From Minisyncoccia bacterium (GTDB lineage: Bacteria; Patescibacteriota; Minisyncoccia; SW-4-49-11): a DNA stretch of 61,503 nt. Shown here piece by piece: positions 3,248-61,503 of the stretch (position 1 is the stretch's first letter; each line of letters starts with the position of its first letter). The stretch spans positions 1 through 61,503 of the forward strand of contig JBIKVS010000006.1 in assembly GCA_044356725.1 (NCBI GenBank), given 5' to 3'. Made by a program: the position numbers and the translations under genes. The notes below the pieces were generated by a model. It did not search any database. It was given only the letters and a program-made list of their open reading frames with translations, and was not told the DNA's origin.

Positions 3248-3757
3248 CTATTTTCGAAAAAGTTGGAAGTAGCCCTCCTCTACAGGTTTCAAAGTATTAT
3301 CCCTTTCATCTGGGACCAAGTTGATATGAAATATTGTTTTAGGGTAAAAGCTGTGTGCCACAACCACAAGGTTATGGGGATATAGCATCTTGAGCCTTCG
3401 CACGAAGTCTTCCTGCTGGAGAACATCCTTCTTCTGAACCATCGTCGCAATGGTGATCTTGTGATCTGTCATTGTGACAGCAGATACCCCATTCCCTCGG
3501 TGAGGGATGAATGATAACTGGTCTGCCCCATCATATGGAAAGTAGATACCCATATCCTTTAGCTCTGTCTCTGTAGCTCTCTTGTATACGGTTGGGCCAA
3601 CCTCAATCAGGTTAGCTTTGTCCTGAGGAAAGCACCGTACCAGAACATTGCTGTTCTGACTAACAATGATATCCTCCATTGACTCCAAAGGAATTTTATG
3701 TTCGTTGCTAACGAACAAAGAGATTACAGTGGCCTTGGCGGGAATGATGGCGGTCAT
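3248..3757 (-). CDS. Hypothetical protein, 169 aa, compositional outlier
   Basis: ORF track; no family recognised. Two 60-nt stretches I hand-counted gave about 40% and 48% G+C, clearly above the flanks. Has its own promoter and terminator. Confidence 0.6.
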   Translation of the reverse strand: MTAIIPAKATVISLFVSNEHKIPLESMEDIIVSQNSNVLVRCFPQDKANLIEVGPTVYKRATETELKDMGIYFPYDGADQLSFIPHRGNGVSAVTMTDHKITIATMVQKKDVLQQEDFVRRLKMLYPHNLVVVAHSFYPKTIFHINLVPDERDNTLKPVEEGYFQLFRK

Positions 3758-15819: not shown

Positions 15820-15825
15820 GGTGAA

Positions 15826-16118
15826 AAGCTAAGTCCTCCCTCACCCATCGCAAATGGGATTTGCTCCTGTGAAACCTCACGGTTTCCCAACCTTCCTCCA
15901 CGGGAAAACTACCTTTTTCCCGACCCCTTTCCCAAAGGCTAAGGCCTTTTTACGGGTACTCCCTCCACTTGCCTCCCGTAGGAATGGAAGAGGGACAAAA
16001 AAAACAACCAACTTGTCCTCCCTTGGGGGAGGTGGCACGAAGTGACGGAGGAGGACAGTCTATATCATTTACAAAGCCTTGTTTTTATGATATAAATTGA
16101 TAGTTATCTACCATCGAG
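15826..16118. repeat. G+C-rich mosaic repeat locus R2 (modules A, C, D)
   Basis: Module A 15851-15953 matches 44564-44672. Module C 15951-15997 matches 44387-44436 (inverted) and 60016-60059. Module D 16013-16080 is identical to 16556-16623. Confidence 0.85.
16068..16096 (+). promoter_or_regulatory. Promoter carried inside repeat module D (TTTACA-17 nt-TATAAA)
   Basis: tttaca 16068-16073, 17-nt spacer, tataaa 16091-16096. GAGGTG RBS at 16116-16121, then ATG at 16128. Confidence 0.5.
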
Positions 16119-16127
16119 GTGGTTTCA

Positions 16128-16364
16128 ATGTCTAAGATTATAGTCTTTGAGATCCTGTGTATTTCACCTTACAAGATTTATGTCTTTATCAAGAGTCTTA
16201 CAGATACTGTTGATGAACCTTTAAAAATTGATATTGATCCAAGTGATGGAGAATTAAGATTTTTCACAGCCCTTCAAACAATTATTGACGATACAGATAT
16301 TCCTCTAGATATACGACAACAGGCGGAAGCAATGTATGACTCTGAATTTCTCAGGCATTGCTAA
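16128..16364 (+). CDS. Small hypothetical protein (78 aa, acidic C-terminal half), cassette 1
   Basis: The ORF track entry starts at GTG 16119; ATG 16128 has better spacing to GAGGTG. Flanked by the module D promoter and a terminator module. Confidence 0.45.
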   Translation: MSKIIVFEILCISPYKIYVFIKSLTDTVDEPLKIDIDPSDGELRFFTALQTIIDDTDIPLDIRQQAEAMYDSEFLRHC

Positions 16365-16396
16365 CACCCCAATCACTCCCATCAAAAACACCCCTC

Positions 16397-16421
16397 CCAG
16401 CCCCCAAAGGCTGGTTTTTTC
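16397..16421 (+). terminator. Rho-independent terminator (module E) after small ORF 1
   Basis: ccagcc (16397-16402), loop cccaaa, ggctgg (16409-16414), then tttttt. Confidence 0.7.
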
Positions 16422-16610
16422 TTGCTTTTTTTCGTAGGGCTTTTGTCCCTCCTATTATTTCTTTTAAAGAGATATTAGGAGGGGGTAACCTTTCAGTCGC
16501 CCGAAATCCACCTCCGGCACTTCGTGCCACCCTCGCCGGCGAGGGATAGTTATTTTTGTCCTCCCTTGGGGGAGGTGGCACGAAGTGACGGAGGAGGACA
16601 GTCTATATCA

Positions 16611-16639
16611 TTTACAAAGCCTTATTTCTGTGTTATATA
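16611..16639 (+). promoter_or_regulatory. Second copy of the module D promoter (TTTACA-17 nt-TATATA)
   Basis: tttaca 16611-16616, 17-nt spacer, tatata 16634-16639. GAGGTG at 16659-16664, start GTG at 16670. Confidence 0.5.
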
Positions 16640-16669
16640 TTAAGGGTTGTCTACCTTTGAGGTGATATA

Positions 16670-16975
16670 GTGAAAATACCACCATTTGTAAAAATAGATG
16701 ATCATTTATATATAAATACTTGTGTAGTTGATTGTATTAACCTCGGATTACAAATCTTAGGGGGGGGATACATATCTAAAGATATAGGGATACTATATAG
16801 AAATCAAGTAATAATAGATGTTTTTGATAGACGTTATATATACTTTCTATTATCCCCTGAATCAGAGATCAGTAAAATAATTTTAAATTTATCATTAAGT
16901 TTAAATAAAAAATTTTTACGAGAGTTGTTTTCTACATTTTATCGTACATATATATTTACAAAAAATGATTGTTAA
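16670..16975 (+). CDS. Small hypothetical protein (101 aa, GTG start) containing a G8 tract, cassette 2
   Basis: ORF track. Same upstream promoter/RBS module and same downstream terminator module as ORF 1, but an unrelated sequence. Confidence 0.45.
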   Translation: MKIPPFVKIDDHLYINTCVVDCINLGLQILGGGYISKDIGILYRNQVIIDVFDRRYIYFLLSPESEISKIILNLSLSLNKKFLRELFSTFYRTYIFTKNDC

Positions 16976-16977
16976 AA

Positions 16978-17201
16978 ATACCCTCCCAGCCCACAAGGGC
17001 TGGGATTTTTGCTTTTTTCGTAGGGGCGACTGAAAGGTCTTCTCTACAAAGTGGAGGGATAAACCCTCCGCTACGAAATTAATAATTCGTAATTTATTTT
17101 TCCACCCCGTCCAGCAAAGCTGTCCACCCCTCAAGAGGGGAATTTTAATACAAAGTACAGGCGACTGGCAGGAGGCCCCTACAATTCATAATTTATAATT
17201 T
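16978..17201. repeat. G+C-rich mosaic repeat locus R4 (modules E, B variant, G, F)
   Basis: cgtaggggcgactgaaaggtc; ctacaaagtggagggataaaccctccgctacg (compare 60090-60121); aagtacaggcgactggcaggaggcccctacaattcataatt (compare 60065-60094 and 28608-28645). Confidence 0.8.
16984..17019 (+). terminator. Rho-independent terminator (module E) after small ORF 2
   Basis: tcccagccc-acaa-gggctggga (9-bp stem) followed by tttttgctttttt. Confidence 0.75.
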
Positions 17202-17212
17202 AAGATTAGACT

Positions 17213-27856: not shown

Positions 27857-28429
27857 TTATTGTAAAGCTTTTAATATATCTGCGGATACTTTTTCCATTG
27901 ATTGATTACCATTGATAGTTATTAACTTACCCTTTTCTCTAAAATATTCAATTGATGGAATTACAGATTGATTATAGGTATCAATACGATTCTTGATATG
28001 CTCTGGTTTATCATCTTCTCTCTCTAATAGCTGTAGTCTCTCAGACAGTCGATTTATCACTACTTCATCAGGTACATCAATATATATAACCTTATATTCT
28101 CGCTCAAACCAAGATAAAACTTTATGTACAATAATAGACTCTTCTTTGGATCTAGCAGCTCCATCTAAAATGATTCCAGTTTTATCATTATGATTATTAA
28201 CCAAATAATTAATCAAAACATAACTAGGCATCCAATAAGGCAAAAATTCACCTTTATTGATTGAAGCAGCAACCTTATCTGCTAGAAAACCCTTATCAGC
28301 AGCTATATTACGAAAAAAATCCCCATACGGAATAGCCTCCATACGAAATTTTTGCTTCAAAATCCCACTCTGAGTTCCTTTACCAGAACCTGGTTTACCA
28401 ATTAAAATTAAAGCATCAACTTTTATCAT
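27857..28429 (-). CDS. adk: Adenylate kinase (short-lid type)
   Basis: P-loop GKPGSGKGTQ, ILDGAARS. Confidence 0.8.
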   Translation of the reverse strand: MIKVDALILIGKPGSGKGTQSGILKQKFRMEAIPYGDFFRNIAADKGFLADKVAASINKGEFLPYWMPSYVLINYLVNNHNDKTGIILDGAARSKEESIIVHKVLSWFEREYKVIYIDVPDEVVINRLSERLQLLEREDDKPEHIKNRIDTYNQSVIPSIEYFREKGKLITINGNQSMEKVSADILKALQ

Positions 28430-28497
28430 AAGAAATATTAAATTATTTACTGTATTCTAACATAAAAGCAAAATAATTTCCAGTATATGTGTGAGAA

Positions 28498-28646
28498 AAT
28501 GATGAGTTATAAGTGGTGAATTATGAATTTGGAATGTTAAATGATGAATTGGGAATTGAGAGTTTCGTAGGGGCGACCTTTCAGTAGCCTGAAACAGTTC
28601 ATATAAATACGGGCGACTGAAAGGTCGCCCCTACAATTCATAATTA
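28498..28646. repeat. G+C-rich repeat locus R7: about ten 7-nt tandem units, then a 19-bp perfect inverted repeat, flanked by AATTATGAATT/AATTCATAATT
   Basis: Heptamers 28500-28569 (tgatgag|ttataag|tggtgaa|ttatgaa|tttggaa|...). gtaggggcgacctttcagt (28567-28585) is the exact reverse complement of actgaaaggtcgcccctac (28616-28634). Confidence 0.9.
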
Positions 28647-28673
28647 AATTATTTTATGTTATACTAGCAATAT

Positions 28674-29090
28674 ATGAAATATTTAAGATTTATACCGTCT
28701 ATTATTATAATTGGGTTTATCTGGTATTTATCTGATAAGCCTGGTCTCAAGTCTGATTATACTCCGATTATAGATTTCTTTTTGAGAAAAGGAGCTCATA
28801 TTGTGGAGTATTTTGTATTATATTTAGCTTTATTCTGGGGGTTTTTGAATACTAAATTTAGTCAAATTACTAATTCTGAATTTAACTACATTAATACTAA
28901 AACTTTTTGTATTGGATTTATAGCTACTTTATTAGATGAATGGCATCAAACTTGGGTTTTTGGAAGAGAGGGTAAGCCTCTAGATATAGCTTTTGACTTG
29001 ATAGGTTTTATTTTAGCTTATATCATTCTGTGGACATTCTGGAATTATTCTACAAACCAATCTAATAAAAACCCTACTGAAAATAAATAA
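28674..29090 (+). CDS. VanZ-like family membrane protein
   Basis: LRKGAHIVEYFVLYLALFW...DEWHQ pattern, 4 TM segments. Confidence 0.7.
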   Translation: MKYLRFIPSIIIIGFIWYLSDKPGLKSDYTPIIDFFLRKGAHIVEYFVLYLALFWGFLNTKFSQITNSEFNYINTKTFCIGFIATLLDEWHQTWVFGREGKPLDIAFDLIGFILAYIILWTFWNYSTNQSNKNPTENK

Positions 29091-59781: not shown

Positions 59782-59831
59782 ATAAGCTATATTATAGACG
59801 AAATTAGGATATTTTACAAATTAATTATAAA

Positions 59832-60121
59832 TGATGTATTATGAGTTGTGAATTTAGTAGGGTCGACCTTTCAGTCGCCTGTTTTTGTCCTCCTTTCTAC
59901 CTACGGCAGATAAATGGAGGAGGTGGCACGCAGTGCCGGTGGTGGATATTAAGTTTAATATTATTACAAGTAAGAGTTTATTTTAGTATTTTAAAGTCTG
60001 TCCTCCCTCCCCCTTCGGGTACTCCCTCCAACTACCTACGGCAGTTAAAAAGGGAGACAATATAAGTACAGGCGACTTGCAGGTTGTCCCTACAAACTGG
60101 AGGGATAAACTCCTCCGCTAC
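59832..60121. repeat. G+C-rich mosaic repeat locus R6 (heptamers, B arm, module D with 19-nt insertion, AT-rich spacer, modules C, F, G)
   Basis: gtagggtcgacctttcagtcgcc 59858-59880. Module D 59886-59945 with inserted ctacctacggcagataaat (59897-59915). 60016-60059 matches module C. 60065-60121 matches 17153-17183 and 17043-17075. Confidence 0.85.
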
Positions 60122-60220
60122 CAATATAATGTCGGCAGGGCGCTGACTCTACGAATGACAAATGACTGAAATAACTGGCTCCCGGACTTGTCTACCGTAG
60201 GTAGAGGAGCCAGGTGCCCC

Positions 60221-61503
60221 TCAGCGAAGGACACAACGGAAACCAACAGTAGTAAACGAATTGGAAGGAGTATTAGATAGACGCAGAGCAAAGACCCCTG
60301 CAATAGATGTATCACTCCAATGACCACCACGGAGGAAGGCGAAAGGGCCTCCTGTTAAACCTCCTGCATAGTATTGCCCTGTATTTTGGGTGCTATTCCA
60401 ACTAGTATTACTTGGGCGGGTTAGGTCATAACTTAGGGTTCCAAAGTTGCTTATTGCTGTCCATTGTTGCCATAAGCTTCCTGAGCTACTATTTGGTTTG
60501 TTTTGTCCTTGTATGGTATCACTTGTCCATTCCCAGACATTTCCACCTAAGTCCCAGATTGTCTCTCCATTACTTAAGGTATGGGTTCTTCTCTCTATGC
60601 TTGGGGATACATTGCCCGTCCCAAAGTATGGATCATTATCTGTACTTGCTGCTAGGGCAATACTAGGATTATTATCGCTATGTCCTCTCCATAAGCCTCC
60701 ACTTCCTACTGTTCCTCCTGTCCAGTTTGTTCCTTGTCCTTCTATATTTCTTGCTATGGTCATCCATTCATTGTTATTGATTAGTCCATACCCTGCTCCG
60801 TTTAGACTACAGGCTGTGATTGCATTTGTTTGGCTTATATTTACTGTAGGAAATCCTGTTGCTGCGGTTGTGGCTGCTACTGTTGCTGAGCCTGTCTTTG
60901 CTTCATATTTCATTACACAGAAATCGTTGGTGCCATACATACTGTTTCTAGGTACTGCTATATAGCCGGTGGGACAGCTTATTGTTGTGCTTGGTCTGTC
61001 TATATAGGTCTGTGTCCCTGCATTATTCTTATATACTAATCTATTTAAGACTAATTGTTGTGTCCCTGTTGGCACTAATGTCCCTGCTGTTATCTGGGCT
61101 TGTATTCTTTCTTCTACTCCTGGATTTACTACTATTATTTGTCCTAGCTCTGCATTGCTTGCTGTGACTCTTATTCTATTGTTCTCTTCATTTATACTTA
61201 CTCTATATTCTCCTCCTGATGGTGCTACTGGTATCCCTGCTATATAATCCGGTACTAGTACTCTTAGATCTGCTTTATTGCTACAAGTTGTTGCTCCTCC
61301 TACCTGTTCTGTTCCTGTTTGACATATGTCTTTTAATGTTGTTGTTATCCCTGCGGGATAGCTTCCTGTGTCTATTAGGTATTGTTCTATTGCTTTGTAG
61401 ATTGTATTTATATCTGCTCTTCTTTGTGCATTCCTGGCTTGTGCTATCTGTCTATTTGGGTTTACTGCTACTAGTACTATTGCCGCTAATATCCCTATCG
61501 CTG
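60221..61503 (-). CDS. Prepilin-type N-terminal helix fused to an FGE-sulfatase/SUMF1 (C-type lectin fold) domain; 5' end beyond window
   Basis: The ORF track lists only 60221-61075. The frame stays open to 61503 and reads ...IGILAAIVLVAVNPNRQIAQARNAQRRADINTIYKAIEQYLIDTGSYP (type IV pilin / T2SS pseudopilin helix). FGE-domain motifs: DFCVMKYEAK, NEWMTIARN, WEWTSD, RGGHW, VGFRC. Confidence 0.8.
   Translation of the reverse strand, partial: AIGILAAIVLVAVNPNRQIAQARNAQRRADINTIYKAIEQYLIDTGSYPAGITTTLKDICQTGTEQVGGATTCSNKADLRVLVPDYIAGIPVAPSGGEYRVSINEENNRIRVTASNAELGQIIVVNPGVEERIQAQITAGTLVPTGTQQLVLNRLVYKNNAGTQTYIDRPSTTISCPTGYIAVPRNSMYGTNDFCVMKYEAKTGSATVAATTAATGFPTVNISQTNAITACSLNGAGYGLINNNEWMTIARNIEGQGTNWTGGTVGSGGLWRGHSDNNPSIALAASTDNDPYFGTGNVSPSIERRTHTLSNGETIWDLGGNVWEWTSDTIQGQNKPNSSSGSLWQQWTAISNFGTLSYDLTRPSNTSWNSTQNTGQYYAGGLTGGPFAFLRGGHWSDTSIAGVFALRLSNTPSNSFTTVGFRCVLR
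60224..60349 (-). other. Putative DGR variable region (VR) within the FGE/C-type-lectin domain
   Basis: All scaffold codons are adenine-free. Interspersed NNT codons. Peptide LRGGHWSDTSIAGVFALRLSNTPSNSFTTVGFRCVLR. See findings. Confidence 0.6.

Follow-up and report, generated by a model that had tools for sequence, protein, structure and literature searches.

The window analysed here, a stretch of 61,503 nt from contig JBIKVS010000006.1, ends within a type IV pilin-like gene whose 3' end bears a variable region (VR) of the kind diversified by diversity-generating retroelements (DGRs). We are nearly certain that this VR signature originated in a DGR, and we lean towards the view that the VR is now a recently orphaned, frozen DGR target. 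The DGR origin is well supported because the VR aligns with template repeats (TRs) of related bacteria, its mismatches are placed at TR adenines, the entropy of the gene family is concentrated at TR-adenine codons, and homologues of the gene are linked to cassettes that also hold a bAvd gene and a reverse transcriptase (RT). Related contigs used for comparison carry L-numbers, and P0001 is the full-length window protein. The gene and its VR comprise the following features.

60221 to 61503, minus strand: type IV pilin-like gene with a C-terminal FGE/C-type-lectin domain; partial, its first 22 codons lying beyond 61503
60220 to 60345, minus strand: VR, the stretch homologous to the relatives' TRs, from CTTTCGCC to TGAG (alignment to the TRs of L013, L020, L021, L026 and L028)
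60245 to 60322, minus strand: block with the 17 codons that match TR codons having adenine at position 1 or 2 (His416 to Val441 of P0001)
60220 to 60244, minus strand: invariant adenine-free 3' end of the VR (GGTTTCCGTTGTGTCCTTCGC TGA G), by its position a candidate integration end resembling an initiation of mutagenic homing (IMH) element

The gene stops at a TGA codon (60221-60223, minus strand), and the VR, at the 3' end of the open reading frame (ORF), runs up to this stop inside the FGE/C-type-lectin fold. The window protein begins at residue 23, the prepilin motif sitting just past the window end. P0001 (448 aa), recovered from a contig 100% identical to the window, has an N-terminus that reads MNINKKRASKGFTLLEILLVIAAIGILAAIVLV and contains the prepilin motif (G/FTLxE, then a hydrophobic alpha-helix) as KGFTLLEILLVIAAIGILAAIVLV. 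The prepilin N-terminal domain TIGR02532 was matched with 25.9 bits (cut-off 16.3), and a PDB search with a family profile of the N-terminus found Geopilin, GspG, PilA and PilE, with E-values of 2e-10 to 1.5e-8 for Geopilin and GspG. Pfam FGE-sulfatase was detected in the C-terminal half (33.5 bits, cut-off 23.3). An AlphaFold2 model (mean pLDDT 82.5) placed a helix at residues 14-67; the best PDB matches of this model in Foldseek were TaqVP (5VF4, E 1.4e-7), Mtd (1YU entries, E 1.9e-5), FGE enzymes and TvpA (2Y3C, E 1e-3), all but the FGE enzymes being DGR variable proteins, and the pseudopilins PulG and EpsG matched its N-terminal part. The resemblance to FGE is thus established at the level of the fold, and DGR targets with the FGE/C-type-lectin fold are generally non-enzymatic binders (PMC11661182). 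A protein search returned at least 920 homologues of the pilin-FGE family. In near-identical contigs the gene order is MurJ, pilin, lepA. No pilus assembly genes (PilB, PilC, PilM, PilT or prepilin peptidase) were found among the 15 window ORFs scanned, the genome being incomplete.

A sequence-only reading of the window had described the last 42 codons of the gene (60224-60349, minus strand) as poor in adenine, with long adenine-free runs on the coding strand. Composition counts and resampling bore out both its coordinates and its codons. Adenine made up 11.9% of the coding strand in these codons compared with 41.4% in the other 384, and third-position A was 7% compared with 54% in the remainder of the gene. 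The adenine-free runs measured 28 nt (60322-60349), 20 nt (60279-60298) and 28 nt (60222-60249), and only three codons of the VR end in A (ACA, GCA and CTA). In synonymous resampling of the same 42 amino acids, the codon usage of the gene itself predicted 39.9±2.2 adenines where 15 were observed; with the usage of 51 other window ORFs the expectation was 28.8±2.9, and 15 or fewer occurred in none of 20,000 simulations. On the latter usage the z-score of the VR was -4.75, which is matched by the start of lepA (-4.83). The anomaly is therefore extreme mainly relative to its own gene, because the non-VR part is unusually A-rich (third-position A 54% compared with 37% in the neighbouring genes). 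In cassette-linked copies of the VR third-position A was 0.05-0.12, compared with 0.07 in the window. As separate observations on codon usage, the pilin-FGE gene outside the VR (60350-61503, minus strand) uses A-rich, T-poor codons, with third-position A of 47-54% and T of 19-26% across the family and 37% A and 41% T in other window genes; this style is conserved in L002, L013, L020 and L021. The second most A-depleted window ORF, after lepA, encodes 169 aa (3248-3757, minus strand), has no Pfam match and is atypical in its codons, with third-position A of 0.20, T of 0.28 and C+G of 0.52.

Scanning metagenome contigs for the adenine-free scaffold pattern yielded one TR, in L005, and four VRs; the window's own contigs were not part of that collection. 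The L005 TR, which reads RGGNWNNTTNAGVFTLNLNNTPSNTNNNIGFRCV, lies outside long ORFs and is flanked by a bAvd gene and an RT with the motif IGNLTSQ. Further cassette contigs were reached via homologues of the window protein and relatives of the L005 RT. The order pilin-FGE (with VR), bAvd, TR, RT was found in four Paceibacteria contigs (L013, L020, L021 and L026). RT and Avd adjoin the homologue in L013, L021 and L026; L020 has Avd and TR, its contig ending just after the TR and before the RT. Host assignment to Paceibacteria/Patescibacteria was taken from the names of related metagenome-assembled genomes (MAGs) and proteins. The target proteins of L020 and L021 are 83% and 72% identical to the window protein, and within single cassettes the mismatches were adenine-specific.

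L020, own VR against own TR: 20 mismatches at TR adenines, 1 elsewhere
L021, own VR against own TR: 16 mismatches at TR adenines, 0 elsewhere
L013, own VR against own TR: 13 mismatches at TR adenines, 0 elsewhere, one codon deleted

The window VR aligned with TRs of the relatives over ~125 nt. Against the 102-nt core of the L013 TR it showed 19 mismatches at TR adenines and 7 elsewhere; against full TRs (~125 nt) the non-adenine mismatches ranged from 5 (L028, the best) to 8 (L020). The TRs of related species differ from it at 19-20 adenines plus 5-8 other positions, and the non-adenine differences that were inspected fell at third codon positions, or at the first and third positions of a Leu codon (CTT vs TTG). 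VR-TR homology stopped directly after TGAG in four of four cassette loci, and by analogy with BPP-1 (PMC3240598) the segment 60220-60244 may act as an IMH. In a 65-sequence family alignment the mean column entropy was 3.07 bits at the 17 TR-adenine codons, compared with 0.82 at the other 24 (Mann-Whitney p = 6e-8). These results uphold the earlier identification of a DGR-type VR in a C-type-lectin/FGE scaffold ending a pilin-like gene, 72-83% identical homologues of which stand in target-bAvd-TR-RT cassettes. They also agree with the proposal that its NNT codons are products of adenine mutagenesis, as the variable codons of the window coincide with adenine-bearing TR codons. A cognate TR of the window VR would have the pattern TTCGCCTTCCTCCGTGGTGGTAATTGG...GGTTTCCGTTGTGTCCTTCGCTGAG and differ at adenines alone; the TRs of L005, L010, L013, L014, L020, L021, L026 and L028, with their 5-8 non-adenine mismatches inside the repeat, were all non-cognate.

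The cassette occupies a different chromosomal site in each relative, so it must either be mobile or come and go, in both cases as one piece. Loss of the cassette recurs among the relatives and is in keeping with an orphaned window copy: L017 (pilin, then rplK) is syntenic with L028 (avd, TR, RT, then rplK), and a 64-nt remnant of the spacer is left in L017. In L009 (3011-4250) the VR is joined directly to the sequence found downstream of a TR, with no avd and no separate TR, and the following RT is split by a frameshift; the cassette was destroyed here by recombination between VR and TR, or else the assembly has collapsed at this locus. L017 and L018, which belong to a GTDB MAG (JBIKWJ01, Candidatus Paceibacteria, sample 3300035666), contain two more VR-bearing pilin-FGE genes, located at contig ends, with the same scaffold codons, no adjacent cassette and no canonical hairpin downstream; the L018 VR has an extra codon. 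The same sample, from Lake Mendota, also contains the window's strain. We rejected the assignment of L026 to the window's species, its syntenic genes being just 74-78% identical. L020 shares with the window only the pilin and the intergenic repeats described below, and L028 only the repeats and the ~130-nt VR/TR stretch. By eye, the TRs of L020 (11823-11924) and L026 (5734-5835) look identical, their cassettes following SpoU and VanZ, respectively; these two contigs come from two samples of one project, which could reflect two cassettes in one genome or a recent cassette transfer.

Around the window copy, in contrast to the compact cassettes of its relatives, the target alone survives. As the sequence-only reading had remarked, no TR or RT was present in the window, and Avd was absent as well. 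Using the RT and Avd proteins of L005 and L021 as tblastn queries, no match was obtained in the window or in near-identical contigs. No TR was found in the 61.5-kb window by an ungapped adenine-tolerant scan and a repeat search, which returned noise only, or in L001-L004, and near-identical contigs reaching 0.7-2.5 kb upstream of the window were likewise free of RT, Avd and TR. Viral contigs, scanned with patterns twice, gave 0 matches. A pattern scan of GTDB added only VRs, two of which belong to a single Lake Mendota Paceibacteria MAG, and revealed no TR. Two sites that hold cassettes in relatives are empty in the window.

15820 to 17212, no strand: empty site after recR, where L021 has its pilin-bAvd-TR-RT cassette; G+C-rich repeats and two small ORFs here
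28430 to 28673, no strand: empty site between the adenylate-kinase gene (27857-28429) and the ORF at 28674-29090, the position of the L026 cassette between its VanZ and adenylate-kinase genes

L021 1-9569 is colinear with window 26790-17214 at 78% nucleotide identity, and the L021 cassette lies directly after recR. L026 5-3620 and 7288-12974 are colinear with window 32288-28649 and 28496-22796 (74-78% nucleotide identity), with the cassette between the two blocks; the adenylate-kinase and VanZ-equivalent ORFs of the window were identified from synteny and equal length. Inside the interval downstream of recR we also observed two 109-nt direct repeats (16013-16121 and 16556-16664, 90% identical), the first upstream of a reading frame at ~16129-16364 and the second directly before a small ORF (16670-16975) with no Pfam match.

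A G+C-rich stretch and a stem-loop had been reported after the stop codon, and both proved real in a DNA fold of 60175-60220. In cassette loci the VR is followed by a hairpin and a conserved spacer element that leads to avd. The window has altered forms of both, and then repeats.

60175 to 60213, minus strand: stem-loop that follows the VR, with its 8-bp arms CTGGCTCC/GGAGCCAG preserved and 23 nt in place of the relatives' 4-nt loop
60100 to 60174, minus strand: what is left, in decayed form, of the conserved spacer that separates the VR hairpin from avd at cassette loci
59823 to 60110, no strand: G+C-rich intergenic repeat units up to lepA, where relatives carry avd-TR-RT (families D1, D5, D7, D9, D11, I1, I5 and I15)

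Alignment of the hairpins placed the 19 extra bases at 60183-60195 and 60200-60205, on either side of the original TACG; the loops of cassette-linked hairpins read TACG, TGAG or TAAG. In DNA folds L020 and L021 formed a 9-bp stem with a 4-nt loop, and the window formed an interrupted 14-bp stem with an 8-nt bulge. The GGGGCA motif is retained in the window. The hairpin was intact at every cassette-linked VR (L013, L020, L021, L026 and probably L006). At the VRs that have no cassette (window/L002, L007, L008/L019, L017 and L018) it was changed or absent in five of five. In the BPP-1 DGR, two additional nucleotides in the hairpin loop reduce homing to near background, and extensions of the stem are better tolerated than deletions (PMC3240598). 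If this phage DGR is a guide to those of candidate phyla radiation (CPR) bacteria, the change in the hairpin may abolish targeting of the window VR.

L006, L013, L020 and L021 share 89-96% identity in the 105 nt that follow the stop codon, and 65-79% in their gene bodies. Being more conserved than the coding regions, this sequence is therefore taken to be a constrained cis element. Between the window and L020 the relation is reversed, with 66% identity in the post-stop element and 89% in the gene body. Three copies of the 13-mer CTACCTACGGYAG are present in the window (0.02 expected), all of them in the pilin-lepA spacer (59897-59909 and 60032-60044 on the plus strand, 60192-60204 on the minus strand), and the copy at 60192-60204 forms the 19-nt insertion of the hairpin. 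All three are situated in loops of G+C-rich stems, which suggests that the DGR hairpin was remodelled into the type of repeat found locally. Rfam at its gathering threshold gave no match in the pilin-lepA spacer.

G+C-rich hairpin-forming intergenic repeats, for example GTAGGGGCGACCTTTCAGTCGCC and TGGAGGAGGTGGCACGCAGTGCCGGTGGTGGA, form a family in this AT-rich genome (14424-14472, 15824-16121, 16385-16664, 16974-17193, 28505-28651, 44341-44693 and 59823-60110). Their copies are 85-98% identical in related species, compared with ~78% for syntenic genes. They flank the window pilin locus, lie just upstream of the pilin in L001, L020, L021 and L026, and fill the empty cassette sites. Rfam gave no match to them.

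Variation at the locus was judged on assembled consensus sequences. The window VR and up to 2.5 kb around it showed 0 base differences in six other metagenome assemblies from six samples, and the 90%-identity protein cluster of the window protein contained two VR versions only. Two features mark differences between strains.

61007 to 61008, no strand: site of an insertion sequence (IS) with an rve-type DDE transposase in the same gene of two other assemblies; intact in the window
60221 to 60780, minus strand: segment swapped between strains, comprising most of the FGE domain and the VR (against L002 3352-3914, ~86% identical, exact boundaries)

L022 and L023, two of the six assemblies with the identical VR, align to the window from 61007 downward only. 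Upstream of the junction L022 encodes an rve/rve_3 protein, the IS parts being L022 1-510 and L023 1-37; this IS is absent throughout the window. A second allele is represented by L002 and L003 (two samples). Over the N-terminal 700 nt it matches the window exactly, with 0 differences from 61403 to 60818; it carries ~93 differences inside 60221-60780, and differs at ~1 per 100 nt after the stop. Some of the differences are synonymous T<->C changes at scaffold codons, and no retrohoming from one TR could have given rise to these. We accordingly rejected the two alleles as two outputs of one TR, the divergence also spanning the whole FGE domain. The gene is likewise mosaic relative to L020, with 92% identity in the non-VR part of the C-terminal module (60350-60780) and 84% in the N-terminal part, and contigs of many assemblies break within it. 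Recombination exchanging whole lectin modules is the observed source of difference at this locus.

The sequence-only reading had suggested that the pilin carries a hypervariable lectin tip and would be a programmable adhesin. Its DGR ancestry stands, but we found no support for a currently programmable adhesin: there is no cassette in the 61.5 kb or in 2.5 kb upstream, the cis elements have decayed, the VR is identical in six assemblies, and an IS interrupts the gene in two. Two findings of a kind that this reading had itself named as refuting it count in part against present activity: polymorphism at the predicted NNT sites was absent between assembled consensus sequences, and the adenine-poor composition was also found at the cassette-less copies of L002, L007, L008/L019, L017 and L018.

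These observations can be arranged in the following model. In this lineage the pilin gene normally forms one unit with bAvd, a ~125-nt TR and an RT directly downstream. TR RNA would be reverse-transcribed with errors at adenines, and the complementary DNA would replace the VR, which is predicted to encode the ligand-binding face of a C-type-lectin/FGE-fold domain on a type IV pilin-like protein. Scaffold codons are adenine-free and so are not mutable by adenine mutagenesis, and the 17 codons derived from AAT, ACN or ATT would thereby carry mixed residues. In the window's genome avd-TR-RT no longer stands beside the gene, the targeting hairpin and spacer have decayed, and the VR sequence is fixed across the assemblies compared. 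Present differences between strains would then arise by exchange of the C-terminal module through recombination and not by retrohoming. Presumably, no cassette elsewhere in the genome acts on the window VR. Any orphaning must be recent, since scaffold third-position adenines are still as rare as in cassette-linked copies.

Several points weigh against an orphaned, frozen VR. The near-absence of scaffold third-position adenines also fits a VR that is still serviced, and the window still has the GGGGCA motif and both 8-bp arms of the hairpin. The requirement for the hairpin is known from BPP-1, a distant phage DGR with a different loop consensus. Consensus assemblies can hide minority VR variants. 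Moreover, sample 3300035666, at least, was taken from Lake Mendota; should the remaining samples stem from that lake's population too, identity of the VR may reflect one dominant clone. The missing cognate TR in the metagenome collection is weak evidence, because that collection does not hold the window's own contigs. Furthermore, DGRs can act on distant targets (PMC5758913), and our search covered the window and its flanking contigs. A bAvd-TR-RT cassette located elsewhere, perhaps beside a paralogous pilin, might thus diversify the window VR in trans, the extended hairpin still being recognized. Non-adjacent targets of this kind are documented (PMC5758913), a Paceibacteria MAG from the shared sample has two or more pilin genes that bear a VR but lack a neighbouring cassette, the avoidance of adenine equals that of cassette-linked copies, and the tolerance of BPP-1 for stem extensions (PMC3240598) could extend to a hairpin whose arms and GGGGCA are retained. 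Nevertheless, we consider an active remote target rather unlikely. The VR is identical in seven assemblies including the window, the downstream element has decayed where the coding sequence is conserved, the canonical hairpin is lost at all five cassette-less VR loci, and every recovered TR has 5-8 non-adenine mismatches to the window VR. In addition, the gene is disrupted by an IS in part of the population, and CPR DGRs are reported to be mostly single-target (PMC5758913).

The adenine-poor codons might instead have nothing to do with a DGR and result from amino-acid content, mRNA structure or translation, the likeness to DGR targets being that of a shared FGE scaffold. The start of lepA does reach a similar z-score, and all FGE-sulfatase domains share an RGGxW...GFR scaffold. 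Yet the deficit was measured at synonymous sites with the amino acids fixed, the VR aligns over ~125 nt with real TRs from which it differs mostly at TR adenines, homologous genes stand in complete cassettes, and the post-stop sequence keeps recognizable remnants of the cassette spacer. Homology to the TRs has largely refuted this explanation, which we regard as very improbable.

Compatible with an orphaned VR, and adding to it, is recombinational switching as the mechanism of current variation, in which pilin paralogues or strains would exchange entire C-terminal lectin modules together with the VR. The ~93 differences confined to 60221-60780 between identical or near-identical flanks, the T<->C scaffold changes, the mosaic relation to L020 and the many contigs that end within this gene all favour switching. 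Only two alleles were seen, however, no donor copy was identified, and the pattern may stem from a single old event; we therefore advance switching tentatively, as possible but short of probable. We give little credence to an extension of this idea to a two-tier system, in which a cassette-linked "generator" pilin would be mutagenized by retrohoming and its lectin module, or modules of other strains, recombined into cassette-less pilin loci such as that of the window. Such a system would resemble pilE/pilS switching fed by a retroelement. The G+C-rich intergenic hairpin repeats flanking every pilin locus might mediate such moves.

The C-terminal part of the type IV pilin of Neisseria is variable and is replaced by recombination between pilE and pilS. 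The module swap at 60221-60780 resembles this process by analogy, and no silent donors, G-quadruplex (G4) motif or recombination machinery were identified here. VRs in the last ~40 residues of a C-type-lectin/FGE fold are also found in TaqVP of Thermus aquaticus (5VF4), Mtd of a Bordetella phage (1YU0-4) and TvpA of Treponema denticola (2Y3C). Sequence identity to these proteins is 13-16%, however, and all of them lack the N-terminal domain of a type IV pilin.

DGRs with FGE/C-type-lectin targets are common in CPR bacteria (PMC5758913, PMC8144416). The loci described here are like those CPR DGRs (Wu et al. 2018, PMC5758913; clade 2 of Roux et al. 2021, PMC8144416) in their Paceibacteria hosts, in the compact target-bAvd-TR-RT arrangement of the relatives, and in the C-terminal FGE/C-type-lectin VR with adenine-specific mismatches of the related loci. 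CPR DGR targets usually have no recognizable transmembrane or conserved domain (Roux et al. 2021, PMC8144416), whereas the pilin-FGE family has a clear prepilin N-terminus; a GspG-type pilin domain has been listed as a rare VR-holding domain (PMC11661182). A VR gene with no RT or TR nearby is also known from remote targets such as the seven of a Treponema DGR, and remote targets have been assigned when they differ from a TR of the same genome only at adenines (PMC5758913). In contrast to these, neither the window nor L001-L004 yielded a TR of that sort, and recognition elements downstream of the window VR are decayed. In Bacteroides, DGRs are reported to act on type V pilus tip adhesins (bioRxiv 10.1101/2024.11.15.621889), a like concept in which an adhesive pilus component is diversified; that system differs in pilus type (V compared with type IV-like), phylum and protein architecture. 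The window copy therefore belongs to a known kind of system and is of note as a well-documented orphan, and the CPR pilin-like target family is a useful annotation.

An attached life on host cells and a reliance on type IV pili are generally assumed for CPR bacteria, and DGRs are unusually common among them. The pilin-FGE family gives the CPR DGR targets that lack recognizable domains a concrete reading, namely a pilin with a hypermutated lectin tip. The window, read as an orphaned target, would be an example of a gene that has lost its retroelement, in which the cis elements decay first and the adenine-free codon signature persists. Orphan loci of this kind show that VR-like composition alone does not prove activity, and they could serve to measure the rate at which DGR targets decay.

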